Positions 43,694-57,463 of a stretch of 64,000 bases of DNA are shown here, piece by piece (position 1 is the first letter of the stretch; each line of letters starts with the position of its first letter). The DNA lies in the IMG/VR virus record IMGVR_UViG_3300021399_000004, positions 1-64,000 of that record; one strand, 5' to 3'. The notes below the pieces were generated by a model. The model saw only the letters and a program-made list of their open reading frames with translations, made no database searches and was not told the DNA's origin. The translations under genes were made by a program, and so were the position numbers. This DNA is from a virus.

Positions 43694-44932
43694 TTAACTA
43701 TGATATTTCATCAAATATTCGGGTGAGACGCATTTAAATGATTTTACGCCATCGAGAGAACGGCATACGATGCCTTCCTTTAATTCTCCATTAATAACCG
43801 AAGGCTGGCTATTTACATACTCTCGAAGTTCTTCTACTGAATCAGGTAGAATATATGCTTCATTAAGAATTGGCACACATGGAACATTATATTTTTCTTC
43901 AAGAAGTTTCTTCATCTCACAACTGTTCCAGCGCCCTTTATCGGAAGTAATAAGGTTAAAAGCCATAAAATCATGACCTTTTAGCCCATAAGTATTGCGC
44001 TGGACTCCTTCTCCATAAGTTTCTCCCTGGATTGTAACCCATTTTGCAGAAGGAGTTTCTTTAAGGAACTGAGATAATACTTCAAACATATGGTATTTTT
44101 CAGCCATTTCTAAATAAATATTAGAGTCATAATAGCATTGTTTTTTATTTTCATTACCAAAACATACATTACGAGAGCAGACATAAAATTCTTTCTTATT
44201 AAATCTGCCACGTCTCATCGTGAAAGTAGTTGATGAACCATCACACTTCTCTGTTACAATCCAAGGACTTTTATCTTTGAGTGTCCAAATTTGGTTTTCA
44301 ATTCTTTCTTCGTCAGTCTTTTTTACCCACGCAGGCCAATTATTCTTCTTATCGCCTTTTCTCCCGAAAAGTAAAAACATTATCTTGCGGCCGCACTTAT
44401 ATTTCATAAGCCAACGCACAATTGGCTTCTTGAAAATCTTAGGATGCCGTTGCGCCATTTTCTTGTATTTATCTATAGATGGCGCTTTGCGCTGATTATC
44501 CTCTTCATCTGCATAAGTTACACCAAGCTGCTTAGTCAGGAAACGAGATTCGTTTTCTACATTATGGCTATGTCCTTCATTATCTATGATATAAGGAGTA
44601 TTATATCCTTCAATATTGAGCGCGGGCGCAACATGCCATCCAAAATCTTCTGCGCTCATTAGTAAGCCTTGCGACACAACTTTGCACATTTTAAGGGTCT
44701 TAATTTTATAATTGCGCTTTTCAAGGAAAGCAAAGCACTCTTTATTTGAAGGCACCTTAGAGTCAATCTCAAAGTAAATACCAGGGTCGCCTGGTTTAAA
44801 TTGATCCTTCTTAACTATAACGGCCCAACCGCCAACATGCGCCAATTCTACTCGATCATATCCTGTAATAGAGCTGATCGTATCAACAGTAACTATATAA
44901 CAAAGCTCTCTTTCGCCCGCGGAATTAAGCAT
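43694..44932 (-). CDS. ATP-dependent RNA ligase (DRB0094-like family)
   Basis: 412 aa with no TAG. Nucleotidyltransferase motif I VTEKCDGSS. The N-terminal domain GYDRVELAHVGGWAVIVKKDQFKPGD is typical of this RNA ligase family. Confidence 0.7.
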   Translation of the reverse strand: MLNSAGERELCYIVTVDTISSITGYDRVELAHVGGWAVIVKKDQFKPGDPGIYFEIDSKVPSNKECFAFLEKRNYKIKTLKMCKVVSQGLLMSAEDFGWHVAPALNIEGYNTPYIIDNEGHSHNVENESRFLTKQLGVTYADEEDNQRKAPSIDKYKKMAQRHPKIFKKPIVRWLMKYKCGRKIMFLLFGRKGDKKNNWPAWVKKTDEERIENQIWTLKDKSPWIVTEKCDGSSTTFTMRRGRFNKKEFYVCSRNVCFGNENKKQCYYDSNIYLEMAEKYHMFEVLSQFLKETPSAKWVTIQGETYGEGVQRNTYGLKGHDFMAFNLITSDKGRWNSCEMKKLLEEKYNVPCVPILNEAYILPDSVEELREYVNSQPSVINGELKEGIVCRSLDGVKSFKCVSPEYLMKYHS

Positions 44933-46749: not shown

Positions 46750-46955
46750 TATCCCTTCTCCACTGTTTCTCGAACTGCATCATCAGTAAGCGGTGATTCA
46801 AGTTCATACAGATAAATACTAAGAATATTATCTGCACCATAATACTTAATTAGTTCATCACAGGCGGCGGCGTAAGATGTTGCGCCAAGAATTCCCTTGT
46901 CACTGTTATCCTTATGTTCGACAGTATCAAAATATTCTACCTTGAAACGAAACAT
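46749..46955 (-). CDS. hypothetical protein
   Basis: 68-aa track ORF immediately downstream of tRNA-Gly. Confidence 0.45.
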   Translation of the reverse strand: MFRFKVEYFDTVEHKDNSDKGILGATSYAAACDELIKYYGADNILSIYLYELESPLTDDAVRETVEKG

Positions 46956-46983
46956 AATTTTGTTTTCTCCTTTTTAATTATTA

Positions 46984-47055
46984 AGCGCGATAACGGACTC
47001 GAACCGTCACGGAAACCTTGGAAGGGTTTAATGACTACCATTACATCAATCGCGC
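46984..47055 (-). tRNA. tRNA-Gly(UCC)
   Basis: Acceptor GCGCGAU/AUCGCGC, anticodon stem AAACC/GGUUU with loop CUUCCAA, T arm GACGG-UUCGAGU-CCGUU. Confidence 0.85.
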
Positions 47056-47245
47056 ATAGTATGCCTTATCTAACATACCTGTTGGCGCATACTACCGCAG
47101 CCGAAGCGTTCGTCGTTCACGAGACACTGGTTAGATTTTGAAGTATTAAGTAAGAAGTTCATCTATACTCACTTCTCCCTATCCAGCCGCCGGACTTCAA
47201 CCGACCCGTCACATCCTGTCAATTCAGGCTTTACTCGGCTTGAAG
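47056..47245 (-). ncRNA. structured spacer RNA between tRNA-Asn and tRNA-Gly (unknown)
   Basis: 190 nt with no credible ORF and GC-richer than coding DNA. Several hairpins (AGUAUGC/GCAUACU, GAAGU/ACUUC, a GCUUCGGC tetraloop) and a long-range CUGGAUAG/CUAACCAG helix. Confidence 0.3.
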
Positions 47246-47319
47246 CGCTCCCTGTAGGACTTGAACCTACGACCCATTGCTTAACAGGCAATTGCTGCTA
47301 CCGACTGAGCTAAAGGAGC
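47246..47319 (-). tRNA. tRNA-Asn(GUU)
   Basis: Acceptor GCUCCUU/AGGGAGC, anticodon stem AUUGC/GCAAU with loop CUGUUAA, T arm GUAGG-UUCAAGU-CCUAC, discriminator G. Confidence 0.8.
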
Positions 47320-47338
47320 ATTTCTTTTTTACAATATT

Positions 47339-47367
47339 ATTATACATAAAATTTTATAAAAAGTCAA
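47339..47367 (-). promoter_or_regulatory. promoter TTGACT-N17-TATAAT driving tRNA-Asn, spacer RNA and tRNA-Gly
   Basis: attata at 47339-47344, agtcaa at 47362-47367. Confidence 0.7.
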
Positions 47368-47705
47368 AACATACGCTCATTAATTTTTGTATAATTTTCT
47401 ATTGGAGCTTCAATACAATCATTGCAAAAAGGGTAAATCCAATTACGGCTTAACCACATTGCAGGTTTACCACATACAATACATGTATTAGCAGATTGAT
47501 CCTCATACTTATCTTCTATATCACGAATTGCATCTATTTTACAAGTACTAAAAACATCCATACGGCCCCATTTCTCTTTCATATATGTAACCGTATAAGT
47601 TGGATCAAGCTCTTCACATTCTTTAATCATTTGTCTAGCAAGTTGGTGCCATCCTTCTGGTAAATTATCTAGAAAATAATAATTATCCATATATCCCGCC
47701 ATCAC
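47364..47705 (-). CDS. hypothetical Cys-rich protein
   Basis: 113-aa track ORF inside the RNA island. Confidence 0.45.
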   Translation of the reverse strand: MMAGYMDNYYFLDNLPEGWHQLARQMIKECEELDPTYTVTYMKEKWGRMDVFSTCKIDAIRDIEDKYEDQSANTCIVCGKPAMWLSRNWIYPFCNDCIEAPIENYTKINERMF

Positions 47706-47731
47706 TTCAAATTCGCATTGTCCTTTTTAAA

Positions 47732-47870
47732 TCAAAGCGGATGAGGATTTGCACCTCACATATCAGAGCATTTCGGGCCGTTCGCTTCGCACATTTCTAA
47801 GGCTATACTCACGTTATAGCTATGCCGCCTCTGACTCCCCTTTAAGCGTCTACCTATTCCGCCACCACTT
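47732..47870 (-). ncRNA. Leu-type tRNA-like RNA A lacking an anticodon arm
   Basis: 7-bp acceptor AAAGUGG/CCGCUUU, Leu-type D arm UGGCGGAAUAGGUAGACGC and T arm GUGAGG-UGCAAAU-CCUCAU. These enclose an 83-nt domain closed by UCAGAG/CUCUGA that has no 7-nt U33 loop. Confidence 0.45.
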
Positions 47871-47983
47871 TAAGTCCGTTTTTAATTAGCAGACCAAGCC
47901 TTCTCCCAACAGTCTGCCATGAGCCACACCGTCCGTTATTTACAGCCACGCACTACGGCTTTGACAAGGTGGCTCGCCCCTTA

Positions 47984-48096
47984 ATTATGCGGGTGAGGAT
48001 TTGCACCTCACATGAGCCGCCATAATCCCCGTATGCCAACGGTTCGTCAACAGCTCTTTTGTTGGCTTCCAGCGTCTACCTATTCCGCCACCGCAT
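47984..48096 (-). ncRNA. Leu-type tRNA-like RNA B lacking an anticodon arm
   Basis: Same D arm and T arm as RNA A. Acceptor AAUGCGG/CCGCAUA has an A1xA72 mismatch. The central 57-nt domain is unrelated to that of RNA A and has no canonical anticodon hairpin. Confidence 0.45.
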
Positions 48097-48164
48097 TATG
48101 TAGTAACCCCGTGTTTATTCTTTTGAGCTTTCTGCATACTACTCTGACCAGCTCAATATTTGTG

Positions 48165-48313
48165 GTGTGCTATTACGCCAAATCTCATATTTCTATTATC
48201 TATCGGTACTTCATACTCGTAGGTCATTATAACAAATGTAGCCTACAATACATTTTGCGCCAATAGAGAAATTAAGAACTCCTTAGCTGAATGGCTGCCT
48301 CTAAGCCAACAGT
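48165..48313 (-). ncRNA. repeated structured RNA element X, copy 1
   Basis: Shares the blocks ACUGUNGGCUUAGARGCAGCCAU.CAGCUAAGGAG, GCAAAAUGUAUU and AUUUGGCGUAAUAGCACA with copy 2. Indels break every reading frame. Confidence 0.4.
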
Positions 48314-48402
48314 CCACAATAAATAAGTGGCTGAGGAGACTCTTGTGCGCTCATTTAATCATTTACATTAATCTGTCTAATGAACCACTTTAATTTATAG
48401 AA

Positions 48403-48942
48403 TTACGGCCATTCCCCAAGCGGCATACCAAGGCCAGCGCGCTCAACATTAGTATTAAAAAACACGCCATCAGTTGCAGGACCAGTCAAAAGCTCATCAG
48501 CAATAGTCTCATATAGAGTGCTAATTACACCATGGCAGTCATTTAGATTATCAGCCGCGAATTGCACTACGCAATTATTGAAAACAACATAAGTAGTACC
48601 AATCCACTGATACCCCTCTTCCGCAGGGCAAACAGAATACGCATAAGCAGGATTTCCCTTAAAAGCAGCATCAAATAGTTCAACCTTGCTCTTAAAAGCA
48701 CGGTTACTTGGTACACCATCTACTGCTACCTTTAGGGTAACATTACCAAAAGAAATTTCATCTGGTAGAATTTGCATTAGCGCGGCCACCTTGTCGCCGT
48801 TATTGCAAGCAAATACAATCGAAGGAGTGGAACCACCAAAATCACAGTTACATGCAATCTGAGGATCGCCATCAAATAGTGCTTCAAACTTACGAATTAC
48901 AATAGTCCAAGGAGGAAGAATCTTTAGCCTTGCATTACTCAT
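48403..48942 (-). CDS. hypothetical protein
   Basis: 179-aa track ORF inside the RNA island. Confidence 0.5.
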   Translation of the reverse strand: MSNARLKILPPWTIVIRKFEALFDGDPQIACNCDFGGSTPSIVFACNNGDKVAALMQILPDEISFGNVTLKVAVDGVPSNRAFKSKVELFDAAFKGNPAYAYSVCPAEEGYQWIGTTYVVFNNCVVQFAADNLNDCHGVISTLYETIADELLTGPATDGVFFNTNVERAGLGMPLGEWP

Positions 48943-48983
48943 ATTTTTAACCTCTCTATTCTCAATATACCCTTTCGGGTTAA

Positions 48984-49055
48984 TACCCCATATATGAGTT
49001 GAACATATATAACGTGCTTAGAAGGCACGGGCTCTCTCCGTTGAGCTAATGAGGC
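48984..49055 (-). tRNA. tRNA-Arg(UCU)
   Basis: Anticodon stem CGUGC/GCACG with loop CUUCUAA, D arm GCUC..GAGC, T arm AUAUG-UUCAACU-CAUAU. Confidence 0.8.
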
Positions 49056-49058
49056 ATA

Positions 49059-49131
49059 TGCCCGTGGTGGGAGTTGGACCCTACTTAACTCAGATTAAAA
49101 GTCTGATGCCTGGCCGTTAGGCTACACGAGC
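49059..49131 (-). tRNA. tRNA-Lys(UUU)
   Basis: Acceptor GCUCGUG/CACGGGC, anticodon stem UCAGA/UCUGA with loop CUUUUAA. The T arm is non-canonical (bulged stem, loop UCCAACU). Confidence 0.7.
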
Positions 49132-49137
49132 TTATGA

Positions 49138-49208
49138 CTGGGGTAGCAGGATTCGAACCTACGATGTTGGAGTCAAAGTCCAGAGCCTTACCACTTGGCG
49201 ATACCCCA
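49138..49208 (-). tRNA. tRNA-Gln(UUG)
   Basis: The 5' end UGGGGUAUCGCCAAG.GGUAAGGC resembles E. coli tRNA-Gln. Anticodon loop CUUUGAC, T arm GUAGG-UUCGAAU-CCUGC, discriminator G. Confidence 0.85.
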
Positions 49209-49223
49209 ATAACTTGACCGAAG

Positions 49224-49454
49224 TCAAGTATGATTAGAAACGTCAGATGCGTTAATAGTTATTTTATCGGCAGTAGTAGTAGTAACAACTGGATATGCTG
49301 TCGCCCACCACTCGCCAAGCCATCCTGAGCAATGTGAACAAAATGTCATAAAAGGAGAATTACTTCTGCCGCATTTAGGACAAATCCAACCAGTTGGTTC
49401 TTTTACATCAGGCTTTGGCCGCCAATTAGCACAATTTTCGCAAGTCTTTTCCAT
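49224..49454 (-). CDS. hypothetical zinc-ribbon protein
   Basis: 76 aa with CENC...CPKCG...CSHC. Confidence 0.45.
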   Translation of the reverse strand: MEKTCENCANWRPKPDVKEPTGWICPKCGRSNSPFMTFCSHCSGWLGEWWATAYPVVTTTTADKITINASDVSNHT

Positions 49455-49551
49455 AATATCACCTTTAAAATAAAATGGTGTGGCTTCACGTCACCACAAC
49501 GACATATGGGTTCTTGCGCGGGCTAACCTCTTTTGTTCTAAAAGCCACTAG

Positions 49552-49626
49552 TACCCTCGGTGGGAGTTGAACCCACAGAAAACCACATTTTGAGTGTGGC
49601 GCATATGCCAATTCTGCTACGAGGGC
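49552..49626 (-). tRNA. tRNA with anticodon CAA (Leu codon UUG) but class-I architecture
   Basis: Anticodon stem CCACA/UGUGG with loop CUCAAAA, T arm GUGGG-UUCAACU-CCCAC, only a 6-nt variable region, discriminator A. Confidence 0.6.
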
Positions 49627-49634
49627 ATAAATAG

Positions 49635-50036
49635 TGCGGGTAGCCGGACTTGAACCGGCACGCCTTACGGCAACAGATTTTCTTACTACTCCATATTACT
49701 ATGGCCGCTTTCGCGTTGTAGTCTGGACTATGTTTTCACCTTATCTTACGACTTAGGTGGCTGGTATATAGTCTCTACACATTTATAATAATAGCTTCCC
49801 GCCGCCAGTTCTTCGACTCTTATCGGCGTTTCTGTCGGGCGCGACCCGCATCCCTGTTTTGCATCTTATTCAGGTTTCTCCTGAACCGACCTTCATCGGT
49901 GCTATTATTAATTTAGCTCGGCGTTATCCCATAAGGATTTTCACCGAATTAGCCAGCATTCACTCAGAAAGTTTCCTATTCTGGTGCTCTTTGTTTTACA
50001 AAAGTCTGTGGTGTCTGCCTATTCCACCATACCCGC
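49635..50036 (-). tRNA. tRNA-Leu(UAA) interrupted by a group I intron (exons 50002-50036 and 49635-49681)
   Basis: 5' exon GCGGGUAUGGUGGAAUAGGCAGACACCACAGACUU and 3' exon AAAAUCUGU...GCCGGUUCAAGUCCGGCUACCCGCA join to give anticodon loop CUUAAAA. Class-II variable arm and discriminator A. Confidence 0.85.
49682..50001 (-). ncRNA. group I intron (tRNA-Leu UAA type, about 320 nt, no ORF)
   Basis: Inserted after U34. P1 can form CUU^UU/AAGAG with a U-G pair at the splice site. The intron ends in G. The core strings GUGUAGAGACUA, CCACCUAAG and AUAGUCC match the conserved J6/7-P7-P3 region remembered from Azoarcus and Anabaena tRNA introns. Confidence 0.85.
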
Positions 50037-50195
50037 AAATTACACGGTGACGCTCACAATTTACCGTAATTTCCCTTATAAGGCCCTGAGGTGGACCCTG
50101 GCGTCTTGTTCTGGCCGTCATCAAGCTCTTCGGCCTGCTTACGACGACTCCACGATGAAGAAAAAACTACCACTCAATCGCTTCCTTTCTTATAC

Positions 50196-50224
50196 ATTAT
50201 ATCAAAATTCTTCTTCATTGTCAA
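50196..50224 (-). promoter_or_regulatory. promoter TTGACA-N17-TATAAT driving a ~140-nt leader and intron-containing tRNA-Leu
   Basis: attata at 50196-50201, tgtcaa at 50219-50224. Confidence 0.7.
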
Positions 50225-50351
50225 GATTATCCATGAATAAATTTTCATAATAATCTTCAATTTTAATACCTTGCAAAGTTGAAGGAATTCCTTCAATTAA
50301 CGGATCAATTTCTGGTAGTTCGTCAAAATTTACATAGTATTCATCTCGCAT
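50202..50351 (-). CDS. small acidic hypothetical protein (start trimmed)
   Basis: Track ORF 50202..50387 begins inside tRNA-Ile. The second ATG at 50351 lies 5 nt after the tRNA, whose 3' GGGGAGGA can act as the SD. Confidence 0.35.
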   Translation of the reverse strand: MRDEYYVNFDELPEIDPLIEGIPSTLQGIKIEDYYENLFMDNLDNEEEF

Positions 50352-50355
50352 ACAA

Positions 50356-50428
50356 TCCTCCCCCTTGGAATTGAACCAAGGACACACGACTTATAAGGAC
50401 GCTGCTCTCACCGCTGAGCTAGAGGAGG
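50356..50428 (-). tRNA. tRNA-Ile(UAU)
   Basis: Acceptor CCUCCUC/GGGGAGG, D arm GCUC..GAGC, anticodon loop CUUAUAA on a stem with one mismatch, T arm CUUGG-UUCAAUU-CCAAG. Confidence 0.65.
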
Positions 50429-50429
50429 A

Positions 50430-50615
50430 TTAATCCTCCACATTTAAACTTTTGCTAATAGTATCTTCATGATACCCCAGTGCGAGTGAAAAGTACCGAA
50501 ACTTATCTACTAATTCCGAATATGTTAGACCTTCATCTCCTGTAGAAAACTTGTAATGAATTTCATCACCGTCACTGTTCGTATAAACAAATTCGTACTG
50601 TTCTTTGAAATCCAC
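50430..50615 (-). CDS. hypothetical protein
   Basis: 61-aa track ORF behind a consensus promoter. Confidence 0.4.
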   Translation of the reverse strand: MDFKEQYEFVYTNSDGDEIHYKFSTGDEGLTYSELVDKFRYFSLALGYHEDTISKSLNVED

Positions 50616-50639
50616 TCTTATCCCCTCGCTATCATATAT

Positions 50640-50668
50640 ATTATATCAAAATTTTTATTGCAAGTCAA
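50640..50668 (-). promoter_or_regulatory. promoter TTGACT-N17-TATAAT
   Basis: attata at 50640-50645, agtcaa at 50663-50668. Confidence 0.7.
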
Positions 50669-51117
50669 CTTCTTTGCCATTCAAAAATTTCATAATTATG
50701 TTCTTGAAACCATCTATGGATTATTGTTCTTTCACTACATTTCTTTTCTGGTTTTTCGTAAACCATTAAAGCAAAATCTACACTATCTAACCCCTCTCCA
50801 GCAGCAATTTTATCCGACATATCTTGTAATTTATCAATAAAAGCATGAAAATTAATTTTACATAATTGCTTATAATATACTCTTAGAAATTGACAATCTT
50901 CTGGATGAGGAGGCTCACAGCATCCATTACATAAGTGATTACATGCTGGGCCAGGAATAAGTGGCGGAATATTCAAACCAATAATAACTCCACGGGCATC
51001 TTTCCCCTACGTTTCAGGCGTCCCAAAATACTTTGGCGGCCAGACCGCAGTTGATAATGGTACTAAATTTTTAGGGAAAAAGCGCACCTAATAGAAATAG
51101 GATGTATAAATCTTCAT
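50665..51117 (-). CDS. hypothetical protein (2 in-frame TAG)
   Basis: Track ORF 50665..50976 extends through two TAGs to the ATG at 51117 (MKIYTSYFY-TAG-VRFF...). Coupled by ATGA to the upstream ORF. Confidence 0.45.
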
Positions 51118-51323
51118 TCCACTAAATCAACCTTCCATCCAAAATAGTTATTATATACAATTGTATTAGCTGTTCCACAGACAGGACAAGTTATATAATC
51201 TTCTTCTTGATTATATTGCATGCTTGTCTATACGTCGTCTTTAGTAAATTCTAGAATAGACCCGCAACGCTTACAAGACATTCGTCCAACGCTAGGACGA
51301 TAGGCGCGTTCAATAACTCTCAT
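51114..51323 (-). CDS. hypothetical zinc-ribbon protein (1 in-frame TAG)
   Basis: 69-aa ORF with CKRCGS...CPVCG, open only if TAG is sense. Confidence 0.4.
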
Positions 51324-51341
51324 TTATATCTCTCCTTTTAA

Positions 51342-51428
51342 CGACACTAGCACGGCTCGAACGTGCATACCCTGTTACAAGTAACCGCAGATTAGCAATC
51401 TGGTGCGTTACCATTCCGCCATAGTGTC
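51342..51428 (-). tRNA. tRNA-Ser(GCU)
   Basis: Acceptor GACACUA/UAGUGUC, anticodon loop UUGCUAA, long variable arm with GUUAC/GUAAC stem, T arm GCACG-UUCGAGC-CGUGC, discriminator G. Confidence 0.8.
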
Positions 51429-51436
51429 ATTTTAGA

Positions 51437-51576
51437 TGTGCTATTACGCCAAATTTCTTATCTATTGCCCACCGCACATCATACTTATAGGACATATAAT
51501 TGTAAGCCTATAATACATTTTGCACGAATGGAGAAAAGAAAACTCCTTAGCTGATGGCTGCTTCTAAGCCTACAGT
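51437..51576 (-). ncRNA. repeated structured RNA element X, copy 2
   Basis: Homologous to 48165-48313. Lies between the degenerate Ser-like tRNA and tRNA-Ser(GCU). Confidence 0.4.
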
Positions 51577-51587
51577 TCTAAAATAAG

Positions 51588-51672
51588 CGACAGTACCAAG
51601 ACTCGAACTTGGGCACCCGTTAAGATGGCTACGGATTAGCAATCAGGTGCGTTACCATTCCGCCATAGTGTC
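51588..51672 (-). tRNA. degenerate tRNA-Ser(GCU)-like paralog
   Basis: The first ~40 nt are identical to tRNA-Ser 51342-51428 except for one base. The 3' half is different: the anticodon stem keeps only 3 pairs, the acceptor has a C-C mismatch, and the T arm CCAAG-UUCGAGU-CUUGG is intact. Confidence 0.4.
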
Positions 51673-51678
51673 AAAAAA

Positions 51679-51753
51679 ATCGAAGATGTGCGATTTGAAC
51701 GCCAACTAGTCGTCCCAAGCGACTCGTGTTACCAGATTACACTACATCCTCGA
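51679..51753 (-). tRNA. tRNA-Pro(UGG)
   Basis: Anticodon stem AGUCG/CGACU with loop CUUGGGA, acceptor UCGAGGA/UCUUCGA. The T stem is weak (3 pairs). Confidence 0.6.
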
Positions 51754-51768
51754 TATTTTTAAAATAAA

Positions 51769-51853
51769 CAGCCCGCTTGGGAGTCGAACCCAATCTGTCG
51801 CTTCAGAGGCTGTGGTTTTAGAGACCACCCGTGCAGCCGCACACCTACGGGCT
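51769..51853 (-). tRNA. suppressor tRNA, anticodon CUA (reads UAG), class-II architecture
   Basis: Acceptor AGCCCGU/GCGGGCU, anticodon stem GUGGU/ACCAC with loop CUCUAAA, an 18-nt variable region containing a UCUG/CAGA stem, T arm UUGGG-UUCGACU-CCCAA, discriminator G. D region is GCGGCUGCACGG. Confidence 0.8.
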
Positions 51854-51886
51854 ATATAAGTGAGGTTTCCCTCACTTTCTATAATA

Positions 51887-51915
51887 ATTATACCAAAATT
51901 TTAATTAAATGTCAA
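51887..51915 (-). promoter_or_regulatory. promoter TTGACA-N17-TATAAT directly upstream of suppressor tRNA(CUA)
   Basis: attata at 51887-51892, tgtcaa at 51910-51915. The leader hairpin AGUGAGGGAAACCUCACU (51858-51877) precedes the tRNA. Confidence 0.7.
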
Positions 51916-52354
51916 ATGTATCACTTGCTAAAACAATCATATAATAACTATTTGGTTCAACATACTCAGTATTTACTAGAATACTTCCATCTTCATTTAA
52001 AGTACCATTACATACCTCAATAGTAATTAAATCCATAGAACAAAATACAAACTTAATAATTTGATCTTCCTTATATTCGCAAGGGAAACTCCAAGTCATT
52101 GTTGGATAAATATCATCTACTTCAACTGTTATGATTTCATAAATACCGTAATAGTCATCTTCAAATAGCTTATTAAAATCAACGACTTCACTTACAGTAT
52201 TATAAATATCTTCCCATTCTTCATCCAACTCAACTACATGAAAAGGCAAATCAGGCTAACACCAATATAAATCTTCAAGAGAAGGACTATCCGCCGCAAA
52301 ACAAGTCGTTATAATCATCATTAATAGCAACCAAATACTTAAAAATCTCTTCAT
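51905..52354 (-). CDS. secreted hypothetical protein (1 in-frame TAG)
   Basis: Track ORF 51905..52249 extends through one TAG to the ATG at 52354, adding the signal peptide MKRFLSIWLLLMMIITTCFA. Confidence 0.45.
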
Positions 52355-52383
52355 AATTATCATCTTCCTTTTTATTTTTTAAA

Positions 52384-52456
52384 AGCCGCCCATGAGACTT
52401 GAACTCATAACCTATTGCTTACAAGGCAATTGCTCTGCCGATTGAGCTAGAGCGGC
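52384..52456 (-). tRNA. tRNA-Thr(UGU)
   Basis: Acceptor GCCGCUC/GGGCGGC, D arm GCUC..GAGC, anticodon stem AUUGC/GCAAU with loop CUUGUAA, T arm AUGAG-UUCAAGU-CUCAU. Confidence 0.9.
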
Positions 52457-53066
52457 GAAAGAGGATACTCTACTTAACAATTATAGTGACCTTCGTCATA
52501 CTTGCAGCATTCTTCAATTATATTCAACCACTACAGAATTAAAGGCTGAGCCATGAGTAGCGACCTCATAACTTCTTTAATCCGCTTTCGCCTAGTGTAG
52601 GAGGGGTTGTTTACCCTCAAGTTTCAGCCAAACCATTCAGCAAATACGATAAAAAAGCTTACCCCGCTTTTGTTTATCATGCTAAATTTCTGTCTTGGCC
52701 TACTCCAACTTTAAACCTTTCTTATATGCCATTTCTGGCTTTCATCGACAGTAACCGCTTGTTGGTCTTTCCTGAGTTTGTACTGGCTACCACCCCAATA
52801 CCTTATCAGGATTCGGCATTATCTATTCAATACTGCTGTCTATTATGCGGCCGAAAGGAATAATGTTTTTAATTGCGAATACTCAAGCGCCTATCCTTAA
52901 TCTTTGGAGTTTCTCCTTTATCGCTAATCATTGCTGATTTCGCGGCTAGATAATAAAAGTATCCTTCTATCATTGCTAGCGATTGTCCGGATAGCCCAAG
53001 CTACGTGGTTAGCGTATCTGCACTTGGTTCTAAAATTGCTAAGTAGAATATCCTCCCTCTCAGTAT
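52457..53066 (-). ncRNA. large structured RNA 1 (~610 nt; ROOL-like candidate by size and context only)
   Basis: Starts just downstream of consensus promoter 53073-53101 and ends at tRNA-Thr. No ORF on the transcribed strand. Visibly GC-richer. The ends pair over 19 bp (53037-53055 with 52472-52490), and the two differences between the arms are both G-U compatible. Confidence 0.55.
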
Positions 53067-53072
53067 AATACT

Positions 53073-53101
53073 ATTATACCAAATTTTTCTTTAAAAGTCA
53101 A
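53073..53101 (-). promoter_or_regulatory. promoter TTGACT-N17-TATAAT driving large RNA 1 and tRNA-Thr
   Basis: attata at 53073-53078, agtcaa at 53096-53101. Confidence 0.7.
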
Positions 53102-53113
53102 ATATTTGACTAG

Positions 53114-53186
53114 TGGACTGACGGGGAATCGAACCCCGACTCTCTGCTTGCAAGGCAGAAGTGCTAACCATTATCACTACCAGCCC
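53114..53186 (-). tRNA. tRNA-Ala(UGC)
   Basis: G3-U70 wobble in the acceptor, anticodon stem UCUGC/GCAGA with loop CUUGCAA, T arm GGGG-UUCGAUU-CCCC. Confidence 0.9.
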
Positions 53187-53386
53187 ATATTCACTTACTT
53201 TCGTTGTCTTTTTATTATAGTGTGCTGCTAAATGACTAAGCCACATATCTTTTAACTCCACTAAAGCACATTTGGTTTAGCATTTCCTTACTTGGTCTAC
53301 AGTTAAAAGCCGGTGGTAGTTTAGTGAGAATCCATCCTTACCGCACACTAGGCCTATTTTATTACACGCAGAGCGCCCATGCGTAC
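53187..53386 (-). ncRNA. structured RNA between the split tRNA and tRNA-Ala (unknown)
   Basis: Nested long-range helices UAGUGUGC/GCACACUA (53343-53350 with 53218-53225) and CUUUUAACU/AGUUAAAAG (53301-53309 with 53249-53257). No ORF. Confidence 0.4.
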
Positions 53387-53530
53387 TGGCGCTCCCCATA
53401 GGATTTGAACCTATAACCCTGCGGTTAGGGCAGAGGCGAGAATTGAACTCGCAACGTGGGCGTCCCTCACACGATTACCAAATCGTCTCTCTGCTACAGC
53501 CGCATGCTCTACCGATTGAGCTAGAGGAGC
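53387..53530 (-). tRNA. class-I tRNA (Asn GUU if joined at canonical positions) with a 68-nt insert in the anticodon loop; CCA encoded
   Basis: Perfect acceptor GCUCCUC/GGGGAGC, D arm GCUC-AAUCGGUA-GAGC, T arm AUAGG-UUCAAAU-CCUAU and anticodon stem UGCGG/CCGCA. The stem strands are 75 nt apart instead of 7. Confidence 0.6.
53428..53495 (-). ncRNA. tRNA-shaped insert within the anticodon loop of the 53387-53530 tRNA
   Basis: Acceptor-like AGCAGAG/CUCUGCC, D-like hairpin ACGAU-UUGGUA-AUCGU, short hairpin GUGAGGGACGCCCAC, canonical T arm GCGAG-UUCAAUU-CUCGC, then one discriminator-like C. Confidence 0.5.
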
Positions 53531-53569
53531 ATAGAATGGGGATTTTATTTTTCCCTCATTCACAATATA

Positions 53570-53598
53570 ATTATACATTATTTTTTACTTTAAGTCAG
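53570..53598 (-). promoter_or_regulatory. promoter CTGACT-N17-TATAAT driving the split tRNA
   Basis: attata at 53570-53575, agtcag at 53593-53598. The leader hairpin GAAUGAGGGAAAAAUAAAAUCCCCAUUC lies at 53534-53561. Confidence 0.6.
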
Positions 53599-53602
53599 AT
53601 TT

Positions 53603-55315
53603 TTAATAGTAGAAATAATATTGTTCTGGCAAATTTTTATTGTCATTTAATTCTCGTACAAAGCGTTTAATATTTGGTCTTGGAATGTATTGCGATAACT
53701 TTTTAATTCGTCTACTAAAGAATATTGATTGCTAATTTTCATTCTCTCGGCTATTTTCATCTGCATATTTCTTATAGCTTTGTAGATAAAATCGTCTTAT
53801 ATCTTTCCAATATTGCTCTAAAAATTCAGGATGGTTTTTAACACAACGAAGAAAGTAATTATACAAATCAATTAAGAAAATATTCATTTTTTCTATTATA
53901 ATACTAGTGTCTACTTTTGCTTTTTCGCATAAGTTAATACAGTAAATACCATTATCTACAATGCCTGGCAAAGCTGTATATAAAAAATTTTTATTATCCT
54001 TATATGTTAATGAATTTTTATTTACTACAGTTTTATATATTGGCAAATCATAATGCCGAATATGATATGTCTATTCTACTCTATTGTAGTCATCAATAAT
54101 AGCATAGCAAGTCAAATTTATACCACAGTCTTCTGCCGCAAAAGAACCAACACCTTGATTATATGGTAAAATATTATAAACTTCTAAGAACTCTCTACGA
54201 TATACTTTACCGGGTGTAGATGGTTCATATGCACTTTGTACTATATTATCTGCGCCGTTAATCCAACTCCATTCATAAATGTCCATAACTCTATTATTGT
54301 CTAATTCATCTTTTACAGCTAGTAAACAATATTTAGATAAAATAATATCGCCGCAATCTACAAAAGTTAAATATGTACCGTGTGTATTTTGCATGCCGAT
54401 GCGTCTGGCATTGCCGGGCCCCTAATTCTTTTCTAATTTAATCAACTATATTAATGGAAACTATTTAATTATATTAGTATAATCAACTGATGAAGCGTCA
54501 TCAATTACTACAATATGTAACCACTCATATTCTGGATAATAAACAGATTTTAAAGTACGTATTAATCCTTTTTCATCATTATAACTAGGTATAATAATAT
54601 CTAAATCTATCTTATCCGATTGATTATATATTATTTTATTATTAGGGATAGACATATATTTATTAAAAATAGGATATTTCTACCATTCATGGTTCCCTGC
54701 AAAATGATTTATTTTTCTACTTTTTGCTTTCTAAAAATCAGTAGAATCATTCATATTATAGTCAGGTGGTAAATTTAAAATATAACCTTGACATAATTTA
54801 TTTAAAGCATTTTGCTCTGGAAAAATTTCATAATGATTATTAATATAATTAATTAGTTCATCATCTTTTTTATCATCTCGTAATTTTTTTAGATTCATTA
54901 ACATAACGCCGCAGTTAATATCTAAAAACATTTCAGTACAATTAGAAGGCTAAGACGAAGCGGCAATGTAATAATCACTAATATCTATATCCCATAATTC
55001 TGAAATATTTTCATTTACAATTGTATCAACATCTAATGACAAAACTTTATCTAAGTCCGGGAATATTTTTCCTAAAGCAACTCGTATTAAGGCCATATAA
55101 GTAAATTCACTTTTAAAATTAGGCCCATGCTTATCAAAATAAGTCTAATTACTTACATTTAATGTTTTTGTTTTTGGCGGTAATTCATATGGAAATACGT
55201 CATCTTCAATTAGAAAATAAATCTATTCAACATTTGAATGAATAAGTAATGATTTTGCTGCACCAATCATATATTTGTAAAGGTTTCTGGTGCCTGTATA
55301 TACCGCTGTCCTCAT
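53603..55315 (-). CDS. fused family-8 / family-2 glycosyltransferase (about 10 in-frame TAG)
   Basis: Four track fragments (53732..54046, 54071..54394, 54461..54655, 54731..54931) plus the N-terminus share one frame, and every junction is TAG. GT8 motifs LSLDVDTIV and NCGVMLMNLKKLR. GT2 motifs IIIPSYNDE, VVIDDASS and GPGNARRIG. If the TAG at 53732 terminates, the end is 53732. Confidence 0.55.
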
Positions 55316-56010
55316 AATATTTCCTCCCATTTCAAATTGATATAATATCGTACAATGGGTTCTACAAAGAAATAATCACGAATACCAGCATAATGATAAA
55401 TTTTTCTTTTATTAGGATTATAATTCATAAATAATGGATGAGAATTATATTCTGTTGGTAATTCTAGAATATGATTCTTATATACCTTATTAAGAGTATC
55501 CTATTCGGCGTACTCTTCTCTATAATGATTTAATCTAAAAATCATTTTTTCATCCATTTTATCTTCACGAATTTTTTTTAAATTACATAATAATACTCCG
55601 CCGTTTACATATAATCCATTTTTATTAAATTCTGGTGTATCTCTTACGCCAGCAATATAATAATTTGATATATCAATATCCCAAAGTTCATCTATATTTT
55701 CAGTAACAATTGTATCAATATCTAAAGATAGAATCTTATCTAACTCTGGGAATATTTTAGAATAGACAGAGCGGATAAGAACCATATAGCCACCCCATCC
55801 ATCATACCAATTCATGCAAGTTTCTTTCTTAAACCATTGCTAATTACTGATATTAATACACTATACTTTATCTGGTAGTTCATAAGGGAAAATATCATCT
55901 TCAATTAATAAAAATATCTAATCAATATGAGAGTTCATTAGTAATGATTTTATAGCAGGTATCATTTTATAATACACATTTCGTGTTCCACTATATGCCG
56001 CTACTTTCAT
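55312..56010 (-). CDS. family-8 glycosyltransferase (4 in-frame TAG)
   Basis: ATG at 56010 to TGA at 55312. Contains LSLDIDTIV (DxD) and NGGVLLCNLKKIRE. Confidence 0.6.
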
Positions 56011-56044
56011 ATTACACTTCCTTAAATAAAATTAAAGTTTATAA

Positions 56045-56117
56045 TACCCGATGTGAGATTTGAACTCAACATTTCAGGCTTGAAAGGCCTGCGTGCTTAC
56101 CTTTACACAAATCGGGC
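56045..56117 (-). tRNA. tRNA-Glu(UUC)
   Basis: Anticodon stem CAGGC/GCCUG with loop CUUUCAA, acceptor GCCCGAU/AUCGGGU. The T arm has one bulged U. Confidence 0.8.
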
Positions 56118-56950
56118 ATATAGCGGTTTGATAACTCAGCCGCAACTGAGTAGGCTACACTGTGTGACGGATGCGGCTCGGCCTCTACGGATACCGTCGT
56201 AACGTTATCCTACCGCTTTACCAGTTTACCCCTTGTACTTTGGGCTGGCGAGGACATTCAAGCCTGATGTTTCCTCCCATTCCGTTTTTCACCTATAGAG
56301 TATCTGGCTACTCTATAAGAAGTCGCTACGCTTCTTGCCCCAATCACTCACTGACTGGCGTCATAGCCTTTTTAATGTCTAGACCATGTAACGACAACTA
56401 GCGATGAGAACCATTTATTCTCATTTTCTGGAACACTAGGTACTTTATTTTACTCCTCTTTTGTATAGCGCCGAGTAAGTTCGGTATAAGTACGCAACCC
56501 TTCACTTTGCGCTTTCTTGGCTGTTCTTCAAACTCCATTTAACCCATTCTTCTCATATGCTGAAATTAATCATATTAGCTACTTATGATCCGACTCAAAT
56601 CCTTCTTCAGCATAACAGCATTTGGGCACCATTACTCTGCCTGCCTACCAGAGTCGCAGCAGTTTGGCCCTGCTTGCCGACACCGCATATTTATATACCG
56701 CGAACGATGTGCGGTTTGGCATGTACCATTTAACTATTTATTAATCGCTCTGAAATACGTACCAAAGGAGCGATGGCTTTTCCCTATCCCTTAAGGCACG
56801 GCCGCGCTTTTAAATAATGCCGCCCTATATCTCTTCAGGTCTGGTCTTTGCCAATCCCCACTTCCCATTTCCGAAGTGTAGCGCACCATGTTAGTTTGGC
56901 TCAACACGGATAGCCGCAGCGTAGATTAATGTCCCTACTGTCTTGGACAA
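56118..56950 (-). ncRNA. large structured RNA 2 (~830 nt; GOLLD-like candidate by size and context only)
   Basis: Fills the whole interval between tRNA-Asp and tRNA-Glu in one promoter-driven unit (promoter 57096-57124). No ORF on the transcribed strand. GC-richer, with many hairpins, for example the 9-bp UAUAGAGUA/UACUCUAUA at 56294-56317. Confidence 0.55.
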
Positions 56951-57026
56951 TGGCGACTTCGGCGGGAATTGAACCCGCGATTTCCAGTGTGACAGACTGG
57001 CGCGATAACCACTACGCTACGAAGTC
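56951..57026 (-). tRNA. tRNA-Asp(GUC), CCA encoded
   Basis: Acceptor GACUUCG/CGAAGUC, anticodon stem CCAGU/ACUGG with loop CUGUCAC, T arm GCGGG-UUCAAUU-CCCGC, then GCCA. Confidence 0.9.
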
Positions 57027-57095
57027 ATAAAGGCGGTTTAAACTATTTTTAGTCTCATTACCGCCAAGTTTAAGGACTCTCAACCTTACATATAT

Positions 57096-57124
57096 ATTAT
57101 ACTAAATTTTTTAATTAATGTCAA
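57096..57124 (-). promoter_or_regulatory. promoter TTGACA-N17-TATAAT driving tRNA-Asp, large RNA 2 and tRNA-Glu
   Basis: attata at 57096-57101, tgtcaa at 57119-57124. The leader contains a GGCGGU...ACCGCC hairpin. Confidence 0.7.
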
Positions 57125-57277
57125 TTAATCATCATAACACTCGGTTTCAATACCAAGTTCCTCACAGAAGTCAGATTCAATTTCATACCAAGTCTCATGC
57201 ATGGCATAGTCATACGCATAATTAGTGTATTCTTCAGAATGGGCCTCACATACGAAATCATCCAGATAGTTAATCAT
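57125..57277 (-). CDS. small acidic hypothetical protein
   Basis: 50-aa ORF with a GAAGGAGG SD behind consensus promoter 57304-57332. Confidence 0.35.
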   Translation of the reverse strand: MINYLDDFVCEAHSEEYTNYAYDYAMHETWYEIESDFCEELGIETECYDD

Positions 57278-57303
57278 ACTACCTTACCTCCTTCTGTATC
57301 TAT

Positions 57304-57332
57304 ATTATACTTAAATTTTTAATAAAAGTCAA
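57304..57332 (-). promoter_or_regulatory. promoter TTGACT-N17-TATAAT
   Basis: attata at 57304-57309, agtcaa at 57327-57332. Confidence 0.7.
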
Positions 57333-57434
57333 GAAAAAATCATCTAAATTTTTACTCTTTGAACTTTCTCTTTAAAAATAGGTTGTGAGGCTATCGTTAA
57401 ATTCAAGTAAAAATTTCAAAATTTAGATGAAATT

Positions 57435-57463
57435 GTTACCTTTATTCGCGTAATAAAGGTAAC
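57435..57463 (-). terminator. terminator-like 12-bp hairpin ending the RNA downstream of tRNA-Met
   Basis: GUUACCUUUAUU-5 nt-AAUAAAGGUAAC followed by AAUUUCAUCUAAAUUUU. Confidence 0.5.

Follow-up and report, generated by a model that had tools for sequence, protein, structure and literature searches.

This analysis indicated that RNA A and RNA B, two minus-strand elements of the window (the whole stretch of 64,000 nucleotides that was analysed, i.e., positions 1 to 64,000 of the IMG/VR virus record IMGVR_UViG_3300021399_000004), are genes for non-decoding RNAs derived from tRNA-Leu. Both are members of a large phage-borne RNA family, found mainly in Bacillota phages and prophages, which is apparently unannotated so far and is absent from Rfam 15. 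In this family, a constant tRNA-like frame surrounds variable modules, which form subfamilies with their own covariation, as does that of RNA A, and which have been exchanged among related phages.

RNA A and RNA B in the tRNA array

RNA A and RNA B are embedded in a phage tRNA array (46984-57855) in which ARAGORN called 16 tRNAs, all on the minus strand. RNA A covers 47733-47871 (139 nt with the discriminator counted, a G at 47733; 5' end at 47871) and RNA B covers 47985-48097 (113 nt; 5' end at 48097, discriminator A at 47985), also on the minus strand, both ranges of the original prediction having been shifted by one base. The two elements are supported by exact matches to the D and T arms and by a row of the family alignment A1 in each case, completed by an unconstrained fold of the core for RNA A and by a single-sequence fold for RNA B. 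In RNA A, the acceptor 5' strand AAAGUGG (47865-47871) is followed by U8-G9 and the tRNA-Leu-type D arm (UGGCGGAAUAGGUAGACGC, 47846-47864), a variable module of 86 nt (47760-47845), a T arm (47741-47759) made of the 6-bp stem GUGAGG/CCUCAU and the loop UGCAAAU, and the acceptor 3' strand CCGCUUU (47734-47740), with which the 5' strand is paired at seven of seven positions, including one U-G. The same succession is found in RNA B, with the acceptor 5' strand AAUGCGG (48091-48097), U8-G9 and a D arm of the same sequence as that of RNA A (48072-48090), a module of 60 nt (48012-48071), a T arm with the 6-bp stem GUGAGG/CCUCAC and the loop UGCAAAU (47993-48011), and the acceptor 3' strand CCGCAUA (47986-47992). 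CCA is encoded in neither of them, and the closing pair of the T stem is G-U in RNA A and G-C in RNA B. The 7-bp acceptors, said to differ in sequence while staying paired, do so fully in RNA A, and this was slightly overstated for RNA B, where six of seven positions pair because position 1-72 is an A-A mismatch.

The Leu-type D arm thought to be common to both RNAs is indeed a 19-nt exact match: the string TGGCGGAATAGGTAGACGC is present in exactly two copies in the window (47846-47864 and 48072-48090), for a chance expectation of 0.01, and a third copy, with three mismatches, is part of a real tRNA-Leu. The identical and unusual T arm with a UGCAAAU loop and a 6-bp stem was likewise recovered, as an 18-nt exact match, GTGAGGTGCAAATCCTCA, with exactly two copies in the window (47742-47759 and 47994-48011) where 0.02 were expected. 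Both RNAs fit the family pattern exactly, namely N7, UG, GCGGAAUAGGUAGACGC, the module, YAU, a 6-bp stem enclosing UGCAAAU, and the complement of N7. The middle domains, described as unrelated, share no similarity, and their announced lengths of 83 and 57 nt agree with the 86 and 60 nt given here if one does not count the conserved YAU that precedes the T stem. Each has its own closing helix, as proposed, of 7 bp in RNA A and of 9 bp in RNA B (GAGCUGUU.../...GGCGGCUC, after a 15-nt linker), ending 2 nt before the T stem.

RNA A, when cut at its corrected ends, folds unconstrained into a cloverleaf core of acceptor, D and T arms. The z-scores of single-sequence folding were +0.75 for RNA A, which is unremarkable, and -2.35 for RNA B; the structural evidence for RNA A therefore comes from comparative data, not from thermodynamics. 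No anticodon-type hairpin (5-bp stem and 7-nt loop with U at loop position 2) was found in either middle, nor any 7-nt loop with U33, as had been stated. The only 7-nt-loop hairpin of the RNA A module, P3, has a 5-nt loop or is deleted in relatives, and in the shortest full-length members of the family (79-81 nt) the D and T arms are separated by only about 26-28 nt. The claim that these RNAs cannot decode is thus upheld.

Neither RNA was recovered by models of known RNAs. ARAGORN with default settings found neither of them, and Rfam 15, with the tRNA, tmRNA and other families whose use had been advised, found neither in their region, at the gathering threshold or at E ≤ 10; at E ≤ 1, it found nothing in the family elements of 20 related loci, RF00005 and RF02553 included. 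The tmRNA search of ARAGORN (-m) gave only spurious, implausible permuted calls. When introns were allowed and the threshold lowered, ARAGORN forced RNA A into a tRNA with a 57-nt intron, with A33 and a shifted acceptor and D-arm register, and gave nothing for RNA B. The group I intron model (RF00028) had no match in 47300-49000; it scored 50 bits in the third Leu-type gene of the array, at 49635-50036, which is a true tRNA-Leu(UAA) interrupted by a group I intron, located 1.8 kb away.

This neighbour and the forced model of RNA A could suggest that the elements are decoding tRNA-Leu genes containing introns, and the position of some elements near integrases could suggest captured host attachment-site RNA genes; tRNA-Leu pseudogenes were also considered. 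Such readings are already contradicted and can hardly be correct. The intron-containing tRNA was rejected on the grounds that the model of RNA A was forced and mis-registered and that none was obtained for RNA B. Moreover, no Rfam intron or tRNA model matched at E ≤ 10, the inserts measure only 60-86 nt, and the shortest full-length members have middles of insufficient length, devoid of an anticodon hairpin. A pseudogene is ruled out by the covariation of the acceptor over 150 stems, described below. A captured host gene at prophage ends was rejected because the element is rare in bacterial genomes and is internal to the genomes of SPP1 and of Grass and EFDG1, two Herelleviridae phages from Bacillus and Enterococcus hosts; in Ln-9, it is near the end of the record.

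Regarding the surroundings of the two genes, a single terminator-like site was found in 46900-49300, inside a tRNA-Arg, and promoter-like matches were no commoner there than in shuffles. From the tRNA-Asn to the ORF at 48403, only one such match was located outside RNA A and RNA B, inside the 47364-47705 ORF. Antisense targets in the window were limited to one 13-mer complement for RNA B, which is about chance by our own estimate, with none for RNA A. A blastn search for GenBank phage relatives of 47600-48250 gave no match, and only short, core-only matches were obtained later.

A widespread frame maintained by covariation

The family comprises at least 237 unique elements of 79-330 nt, in 265 loci from IMG/VR, Bacillota prophages and cultured phages, and 23 of these loci carry two or three elements. 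Two separate scans of IMG/VR, one with the T-arm 18-mer and one with the D arm together with the T loop, each gave at least 120 matches, while a 22-mer, scanned exactly in a collection spanning the genomes of 185,579 species, was found in 30 genome contigs, mostly of Clostridia and Bacilli. Among cultured phages, carriers are SPP1, phi3T, SPbeta-like phages, Grass, EFDG1, B025, Sha1 and Ln-9. None of the cultured-phage records inspected bears an RNA annotation of the element, which the SPP1 re-annotation paper does not mention. A keyword search of the literature did not find a description of the family, the longer sequence motifs had zero matches there, and those of the 7-mer UGCAAAU were unrelated among the matches listed; overlap with a catalogue of 10,006 candidate phage RNAs is possible, as far as the accessible part of that source goes (PMC10690425).

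Covariation clearly supported a core made of the 7-bp acceptor, a 3-bp D stem and the 6-bp T stem. In 117 core sequences, 97.9% of the cells pair, versus 73.4% in shuffles and 37-44% with slid partners, a percentage that is inflated because extraction demanded pairing (five of the seven acceptor pairs at least, and a T stem that matched), though this does not affect how diverse the pair types are. Changes on both sides were observed at 13 of the 16 core pairs. The acceptor pairs covary, with 150 distinct stems, and the 45 combinations of the T stem covary at four of six pairs, the outermost (sixth) included, so that the 13-bp stack formed by a 7-bp acceptor and a 6-bp T stem, proposed for these two RNAs, is backed by covariation family-wide. 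The tRNA-like features thus kept are the 7-bp acceptor, the D arm with G18-G19, U8, A14 and the T arm. The deviations from RF00005 lie in the 6-bp T stem, the G at position 55 and the loop UGCAAAU in place of U54-U55-C56-R57-A58.

At the level of single positions, U8, A14, A15 and G19 are invariant in A1, as is the U that precedes the T stem (U48), and G18 is conserved at 90% or more; 17 of the 19 D-arm positions of RNA A are invariant or at least 90% conserved in this alignment, whose rows were selected for three mismatches at most to that same D arm. The D loop, U48 and the T loop hardly vary in the core alignment, a conservation which, for the T loop and D arm, is partly by construction because the search patterns fixed them (both IMG/VR scans fixed the T loop and one also the D arm); the constancy of the T loop across the family is not independent, since every search and extraction step fixed UGCAAAU. 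D-loop positions 16, 17 and 20, which are variable in ordinary tRNAs, are almost fixed in the core alignment, and about 10% of the members have a second insertion between G18 and G19. Pair 3-70 is U-A, A-U, C-G or G-C; U-G is seen in three of the 117 rows and G-U in none. With 51% of the distinct stems, A is the commonest discriminator, and the other 49% have another base, among them RNA A with G, SPP1 with U, and both phi3T and SPbetaL1 with C. CCA is encoded in two of the 150 stems, and the first base of the trailer is U in 50%.

Such a frame could be a ligand or substrate of LeuRS, which would bind the elbow and perhaps charge the RNA, so that the latter would act as a LeuRS sponge or as a non-ribosomal carrier of Leu. 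The LeuRS of E. coli ignores the anticodon, reads A73 together with tertiary features of the D and T loops, and charges minimal RNAs devoid of anticodon and variable arms. The D arm of the family is essentially that of bacterial tRNA-Leu, its BLAST matches in cyanophage and Stenotrophomonas phages are annotated as tRNA-Leu, and both the invariance of A15 and U48 and the prevalence of A73 point in the same direction. However, almost half of the distinct stems have a discriminator other than A, and G55 and the 13-bp stack change the geometry from elbow to 3' end, and we regard a LeuRS-directed role as improbable. The original prediction also held that the parts of a tRNA recognised by enzymes are kept. 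This is doubtful with regard to synthetases and EF-Tu, as only 51% of the distinct stems have A as discriminator, the sequence of the acceptor can vary freely and the genes do not encode CCA.

Exchangeable modules and accessory loci

Module length was highly variable across the family (18-206 nt). A closing helix of at least 5 bp, ending 2-4 nt before the T stem, was present in 54% of 206 middles versus 22% of shuffles, and its distance to the T stem was exactly 2 nt in three quarters of such middles; the linker ahead of it mostly counts 10-15 nt. Since this helix, after the linker, abuts A-U48, which is the position of the variable arm, an anticodon arm is simply lacking. The idea that unrelated domains replace both the anticodon and the variable arms should thus be amended: the anticodon arm is absent, and the module sits at the variable-arm position.

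The RNA A module is made of a 10-nt linker, P1 (7 bp), P2 (5 bp), the optional P3 hairpin, a conserved 3' strand and UAU. The same module was found in 10 IMG/VR contigs, with compensatory changes in P1 and P2, and within frames that differ in their acceptor and T stems and that do or do not carry the D-loop insertion. In the module of RNA B, an alternative helix, GCCAAC/GUUGGC, would permit a pseudoknot. No relatives of this module were found in the collected family, in IMG/VR or in two JGI metagenome scans, and its internal fold is therefore predicted from thermodynamics alone. Exchange of modules was visible in six pairs of loci that have homologous flanks on both sides and unrelated modules. 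At one site, phi3T and SPbetaL1 have different versions of the element and SPbeta c2 has none. The element is thus accessory, with a patchy, cassette-like distribution.

Linkage to tRNA genes was frequent, with a tRNA within 1 kb at 86 of 148 sites and the nearest tRNA on the same strand in 92 of 93 cases; the spacers to adjoining tRNAs measure 0-7 nt in L013, L068 and EFDG1. A terminator-like hairpin with a U run, identified by eye, follows the stand-alone copies of Sha1, KLEB27-1 and Ln-9. With respect to proteins, an all-against-all comparison of 1,884 flanking ORFs yielded no conserved partner, no ORF cluster being shared by more than 10 of the 67 phage groups, and no Ro-like cluster was apparent among the neighbours, which were annotated in part. 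The clusters of nearest neighbours (HNH, ArpU/RinA-like and terminase, named by eye) each account for less than 10% of the neighbours.

The element nevertheless recurs between ArpU/RinA-like late activators and HNH, terS and terL genes. In SPbeta-like phages, its place is between yonN and the late genes. In SPP1 (NC_004166), where it is found at about 6645-6750, it adjoins the moron ORFs 8-10, with ORF 10 on one side and the capsid module on the other, and is closely followed by a predicted terminator. SPP1 is a lytic phage (PMC6316719). These three positions would suit a punctuation role in cis: attracted by the fold, RNase P and RNase Z would cleave polycistronic transcripts of the phage, such as those of late operons at their start, and the RNA thus released would be functionless. 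Such a pattern, however, fits only about 10% of the neighbours, and both here and at many other loci the element stands among tRNAs, with no mRNA to punctuate. Any tRNA would serve this purpose, moreover, which leaves unexplained the loss of the anticodon arm, the nearly fixed D loop and the exchangeable, structured modules with their covariation, and we see little chance that cis punctuation is the right explanation.

Two published transcripts were considered in relation to the family. An unannotated ncRNA upstream of yonK in SPbeta was reported in the YonO paper (PMC5467207); as SPbeta c2 is without the element at that site, this ncRNA is not a family member and was rejected as evidence of expression. 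The highly transcribed non-coding regions of Listeria phage CKA15 were not connected with the family either, the Listeria matches listed being smaller phages such as B025 (40-67 kb) and not P100-like ones.

Possible roles and closest known systems

Our best explanation, a tentative one to which we give somewhat less than an even chance, is that a non-decoding frame processed like a tRNA and fitted with exchangeable modules constitutes an accessory trans-acting RNA with a putative function in phage-host conflict. From a mechanistic point of view, the RNA would be co-transcribed with the adjacent tRNAs or made as a small unit of its own. It would then be excised by RNase P and RNase Z of the host in the manner of a CCA-less pre-tRNA, receive CCA and fold into a decay-resistant, L-shaped frame. 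The tRNA-rich, same-strand setting, the missing CCA and the U in the trailer fit tRNA-like processing; the additional pair of the T stem might just as well hinder RNase P, RNase Z or the addition of CCA. This extra pair, with the resulting 13-bp stack, may bar the RNA from translation, along with G55 and the missing anticodon arm. The frame would thus supply processing, stability and perhaps one conserved contact with the host at the elbow, while the exchangeable module would supply a phage-specific binding or decoy activity, acting in trans.

Two observations point beyond a mere scaffold. The smallest members, with 18-28 nt between the D and T arms, leave little room for a module, and the frame itself may therefore be active. 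In addition, the near fixation of positions 16, 17 and 20 exceeds the needs of RNase P and RNase Z and therefore suggests a specific reader of the elbow, which the scaffold idea does not name. The frame could then be the effector, as an elbow and acceptor mimic devoid of anticodon that would bind, trap or divert a tRNA-binding factor conserved in Bacillota, the variable modules being tolerated or tuning specificity. Candidate targets are toxins modifying the 3' CCA end (pyrophosphokinases of the toxSAS/CapRel type, MenT/AbiEii nucleotidyltransferases), the TGS domain of Rel or a tRNA-processing enzyme. Such toxins are described as acting on tRNA 3' ends (PMC11559606). The near-invariance of the D loop and U48 while both stems drift would agree with such a sequence-specific reader, as would the members of 79-81 nt, which have almost no module; the accessory, patchy distribution is typical of counter-defence genes, and the family is largely limited to phages and prophages of Bacillota. 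On the other hand, no link to a defence system was found, elaborate covarying modules and their exchange as cassettes are hard to square with an irrelevant module, a stoichiometric decoy must outcompete the whole tRNA pool, and the T loop was fixed by the search patterns. A frame acting by itself thus seems rather unlikely. Among the decoy, sponge and scaffold roles first put forward, a decoy for anticodon nucleases is the least plausible, because there is no anticodon loop to cut.

A bolder reading is a natural RNA display system of phages of Gram-positive bacteria, in which a constant frame derived from tRNA-Leu would present swapped modules as aptamers or decoys against host factors such as defence systems. 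Recombination at the conserved arms would swap the modules, and host tRNA enzymes would mature the frame, translation being barred. We consider this reading unlikely on the whole, although serious; if true, it would be an RNA counterpart of the hypervariable anti-defence proteins. The accessory, cassette-like pattern, as in counter-defence genes, may point more generally to an RNA-based conflict at tRNA-binding proteins. Since some members are carried by genetically tractable phages of B. subtilis, their function is directly testable. If confirmed, the family would be among the more widespread, still-unnamed families of structured RNAs in phages. It offers a natural example of a tRNA frame with interchangeable RNA domains, and it indicates what a tRNA can lose (the anticodon arm) and what it must keep (the D loop, U48 and the T loop) for a role outside translation.

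The family also bears on a long-standing question, the purpose of the non-tRNA RNAs in phage tRNA clusters, such as species 1 and 2 of T4. These RNAs, rnaC and rnaD (139 and 119 nt), belong to the tRNA cluster of the phage, share the strand of its tRNAs and bear no annotation other than 'small, stable RNA'. At its 3' end, rnaC has a T arm of canonical type, CCGGGUUCGAAUCCCGG, and then a strand like the 3' strand of an acceptor, yet the T loop is UUCGAAU, the T stem has 5 bp and not 6, and there is no tRNA-Leu D arm. Neither T4 RNA has sequence similarity to the family, a Leu D arm or a UGCAAAU loop, and the host of T4 is Gram-negative. As non-decoding RNAs of a tRNA cluster, they may be seen as the closest conceptual precedent, by analogy of setting and size alone; to our knowledge, they do not belong to a modular family with exchangeable domains.

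Bacterial tRNA-Leu shares with the family the 7-bp acceptor, U8, the D arm GCGGAAUnGGUAGACGC, the A15-U48 Levitt pair, G18-G19, a helix that occupies the variable-arm position ahead of U48, occurrence in tRNA arrays and a CCA that is not encoded. By contrast, the family has no anticodon arm, a T stem of 6 and not 5 bp, a UGCAAAU loop (G55) instead of UUCRAnU and a discriminator that is not fixed as A, and it falls below detection by RF00005 and ARAGORN. In tmRNA, as in the family, a tRNA-like acceptor and T arm surround a large non-tRNA domain without an anticodon, but tmRNA is set apart by a degenerate D arm, by the Ala identity of its G3-U70 pair, by pseudoknots and by an internal reading frame for the tag. 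Assignment to tmRNA was rejected, given the lack of G-U at pair 3-70, the intact D arm and the lack of any match to the Rfam tmRNA families. In engineered tRNA scaffolds and in the tRNA-miRNA-encoded RNAs of the gammaherpesvirus MHV68, the tRNA frame ensures processing by tRNA enzymes and stabilises or releases a cargo. The analogy is purely functional: these RNAs are engineered or from a eukaryotic virus, and their cargo replaces the anticodon stem or follows the tRNA; we know of no such scaffolds or tRNA-linked cargo RNAs in phages.

Other non-decoding tRNA mimics of bacteria or phages are YrlA and tRNAOther. In YrlA, the ends of the RNA form a Ro-binding stem and the tRNA-like part is internal, a topology inverse to that of the family. 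A Y RNA was rejected for the present elements, whose ends form an acceptor stem and none of which is matched by RF02553, the model of YrlA, an RNA that mimics the D and T arms of tRNA (PMC4201824). The tRNAOther of Bacillus cereus is a pseudo-tRNA that does not work in translation and affects cell physiology (PMC3399842). Neither is described as modular with exchangeable domains in the accessible parts of these two sources (PMC4201824, PMC3399842). The latter is a single chromosomal gene, set beside the family by its description alone. As to the length of the acceptor and T stack, 13 bp are also found in tRNA-Sec. Variants of the 8/4 and 9/3 types (12 bp) are documented as well (PMC5389517). 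All these variants, whether 8/5 or 9/4 (13 bp), 8/4 or 9/3, decode, whereas the family is of the 7/6 type and has no anticodon arm.

RNA A and RNA B within the tRNA array

RNA A (47871..47733) and RNA B (48097..47985) are minus-strand elements flanked by tRNA-Asn and tRNA-Arg, with each boundary now corrected by one base. The 19-nt string UGGCGGAAUAGGUAGACGC, which corresponds to U8, G9 and the D arm of bacterial tRNA-Leu, and the 18-nt T-arm string GUGAGGUGCAAAUCCUCA are identical in the two RNAs and occur twice each in 64 kb, against 0.01-0.02 expected. The middle segments (86 nt in A, 60 nt in B) are unrelated, each being closed by a helix that stops 2 nt short of the T stem, and no hairpin with a 7-nt loop in either RNA has a U at the U33 position. 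Shared arms, unrelated middles and a missing anticodon loop were thus found as first described; the acceptor stems do differ in sequence, with 7/7 pairs in A, but that of B, initially regarded as fully paired, has 6/7, with an A-A mismatch at 1-72. Neither RNA was detected by ARAGORN (default) or by Rfam 15 at the gathering threshold, and the proposed covariance-model check gave no Rfam 15 match to A or B even at E<=10. The observation is real, and larger in extent than first noted (see below).

Both RNAs belong to a phage-type array of 16 tRNAs (ARAGORN; 46984-57855, all minus strand), which also holds, between tRNA-Thr and tRNA-Ala, a full-length ROOL RNA (RF03087, 328 bits; 52468-53051, minus strand). 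A third Leu-type gene, at 49635-50036 (minus strand), is a true tRNA-Leu(UAA), interrupted between U34 and A35 by a group I intron about 320 nt long (exon 1, GCGGGUAUGGUGGAAUAGGCAGACACCACAGACUU; exon 2, AAAAUCUGUUGCCGUAAGGCGUGCCGGUUCAAGUCCGGCUACCCGCA). It was missed by ARAGORN and by the whole-window Rfam scan at the gathering threshold, while a local scan gave RF00028 at 49702-50011 (50.0 bits, E = 7.9e-12). ARAGORN also reported, on the minus strand, an 87-nt tRNA of amber-suppressor type (51768-51854; anticodon CUA, labelled Pyl), not listed by the Rfam tRNA model, and a 76-nt 'tRNA-Leu(CAA)' lacking a long variable arm (49551-49626); both are unusual and could be relevant to stop-codon recoding in this phage. 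Just past the tRNA region, 2.8 kb downstream, a 412-aa ORF (43694-44932, minus strand) combines a domain of RNA ligase type (PF09414, E = 2e-20) with a PHA02142 OB fold and may serve tRNA repair. Within 46900-49300, the single terminator-like site lies in tRNA-Arg, and promoter-like matches were no more frequent than in shuffles. The spacers around A and B, 47872-47984 (113 nt) and 48098-48402 (about 300 nt), contain no minus-strand ORF of at least 40 aa, although plus-strand ORFs (47749-47889 and 48012-48266) overlap both.

A phage-borne family with a constant frame

Scanning IMG/VR with the T-arm 18-mer gave at least 120 matches, nearly all of those listed having the same layout, and a second scan, in which only the D arm and T loop were fixed, again gave at least 120. 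When one genome per GTDB species was searched with a 22-mer, 30 contigs matched, mostly from Lachnospiraceae, Oscillospiraceae, Acutalibacteraceae, Flavonifractor, Ruminococcus, Lactobacillaceae, Psychrobacillus and Alicyclobacillus, and in three cases from Saccharibacteria MAGs. Those three (L135, L137 and L142), which lie outside Bacillota, share with IMG/VR contig L028 an element of 129 nt that varies at a few positions and has an acceptor only 5/7 paired in the register used. Where checked, the genomic setting is a mobile element, with a terminase (two genomes), an integrase (one) or a transposase (one) in the surroundings; two of the genomes checked had no PHROG match nearby. Carriers include the Bacillus phages SPP1, phi3T, SPbetaL1/4/6/7, Grass and relatives, and KLEB27-1, together with Lactobacillus Sha1, Leuconostoc Ln-9, Enterococcus EFDG1 and Listeria B025; the element had no RNA annotation in any of the eight GenBank phage records inspected. 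Among the matches listed, 265 loci yielded 237 unique elements, 79-330 nt long, with two or three copies at 23 of these loci.

The structure of this family is solid. At each position of the 150 distinct acceptor stems, Watson-Crick or G-U pairs make up 81-99%, and all four Watson-Crick types occur; this figure, like the paired fraction given below, is to be read knowing that extraction of elements required partial pairing. The T stem, present in 45 combinations, covaries at four of six pairs; since these include the outermost, it is 6 bp long. In the core alignment of 117 sequences, 97.9% of cells pair, versus 73.4% in shuffles and 37-44% when partners are slid, and in 13 of 16 pairs both partners change. 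Invariance, complete or nearly so, is seen in this alignment at U8 and G9, throughout the D stem and D loop (AAUAGGUAGA), and at the U directly before the T stem, this U being preceded by A in 87%. These positions are the builders of the tRNA elbow (U8-A14, A15-U48, G18, G19-C56, U54-A58), the odd one out being a G at 55. Conservation of the D arm and T loop is partly by construction, because the T loop was fixed in both IMG/VR scans, the D arm was fixed in one, and the core alignment was selected on the D arm.

What is shown is an RNA under selection, carried by phages, structured and unable to decode, in which an exchangeable module is combined with a constant tRNA-Leu-like frame. A pseudogene, an intron-containing tRNA or a captured host gene is a highly improbable reading; tested against tRNA, tmRNA, YrlA and group I-intron tRNA-Leu, the family failed the defining tests of each. 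To our knowledge, the known departures from 7/5 do not include a 7/6 acceptor/T split. Forms of 8/4 and 9/3 have been described (PMC5389517). The closest precedents are species 1 and 2 RNAs of T4, which are stable, lie in a phage tRNA cluster and are annotated without function, but have no homology to this family, species 1 having a normal T arm. No description was found in Rfam 15, nor in full-text literature by longer sequence motifs or keywords; some members may be listed in a large phage RNA candidate catalogue (PMC10690425).

The exchangeable module and possible function

The variable part measures 18 to 206 nt (median 55). An uninterrupted helix of 5 bp or more ending 2-4 nt before the T stem was found in 54% of 206 unique middles, versus 22% of shuffles, and three quarters of such helices end exactly 2 nt before it; 5' of the helix runs an A/G-rich linker, most commonly of 10-15 nt. 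From these positions of closing helix and linker, the module occupies the site of a class II variable arm, the anticodon arm being simply absent. The module of RNA A is present in 10 IMG/VR contigs, on frames differing in acceptor and T stems, with compensatory changes in its helices P1 and P2 and a third hairpin replaced or deleted; that of B025 resembles, by eye, those of gut-phage contigs L005 and L037. Modules of eight loci (L003, L060, L091, L107, L122, L134, L145 and L150) harbor canonical T-arm hairpins (GGUUCGAnUCC), one or two each, followed in some by a string resembling an acceptor 3' strand, which suggests nested fragments of tRNA origin or T-loop tertiary modules. In about 10% of members, G18 and G19 are separated by a second insertion (38-124 nt), usually with a GGUAAA motif. 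In six locus pairs, flanks are homologous on both sides and acceptors (nearly) the same, while modules are unrelated; SPbeta c2 lacks the element at a site where phi3T and SPbetaL1 hold different versions. These swaps and this absence indicate an exchangeable cassette within an accessory element.

We tentatively favor, at somewhat below even probability, a division of labor in which maturation and stability depend on the frame and specificity on the module. The main rival, in which the frame itself would act as decoy or inhibitor of a tRNA-binding host factor, is supported by the near-fixed D loop and by the existence of members having almost no module; we consider it rather unlikely. A LeuRS ligand is a still more doubtful proposal, as the discriminator varies (A 51%, U 29%, C 13%, G 6% across the 150 distinct stems), and we give equally little credence to a cis processing signal. 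Host RNase P and RNase Z would excise the RNA as they do a CCA-less pre-tRNA, and CCA would be added; two of the 150 stems encode it. Exclusion of the product from translation would be due to the 13-bp stack, G55 and the lack of an anticodon arm, and the RNA would act in trans.

Genomic neighborhood

In 92 of 93 cases the element and its nearest tRNA share a strand, sometimes only 0-7 nt apart. Copies that stand alone are often flanked by an ArpU/RinA-type late activator on one side and HNH, terS and terL genes on the other, an arrangement that accounts for only about a tenth of neighbors, and no protein cluster was common to more than 10 of 67 phage groups. In SPP1 (NC_004166), the element comes after moron ORFs 8-10, and about 13 nt beyond it is a hairpin (about 6765-6824) whose stem ACGGAC/GUCCGU encloses a canonical T arm, CGGGUUCAAUUCCCG, before a U run. 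The SPP1 re-annotation paper, which does not mention the element, describes this hairpin as a weak terminator (-5.5 kcal/mol); it resembles a tRNA acceptor/T minihelix. In SPbeta c2 (NC_001884), 1.7 kb from yonK to yonN (59153-60833) carry no annotated gene, and an unannotated ncRNA and the start of a late operon have been reported within this stretch (YonO paper, PMC5467207). The same stretch shares the motif AAUGCCCUUnUAAGC...GCUUAUUAUGCGGUCAA with the region downstream of the Grass element.
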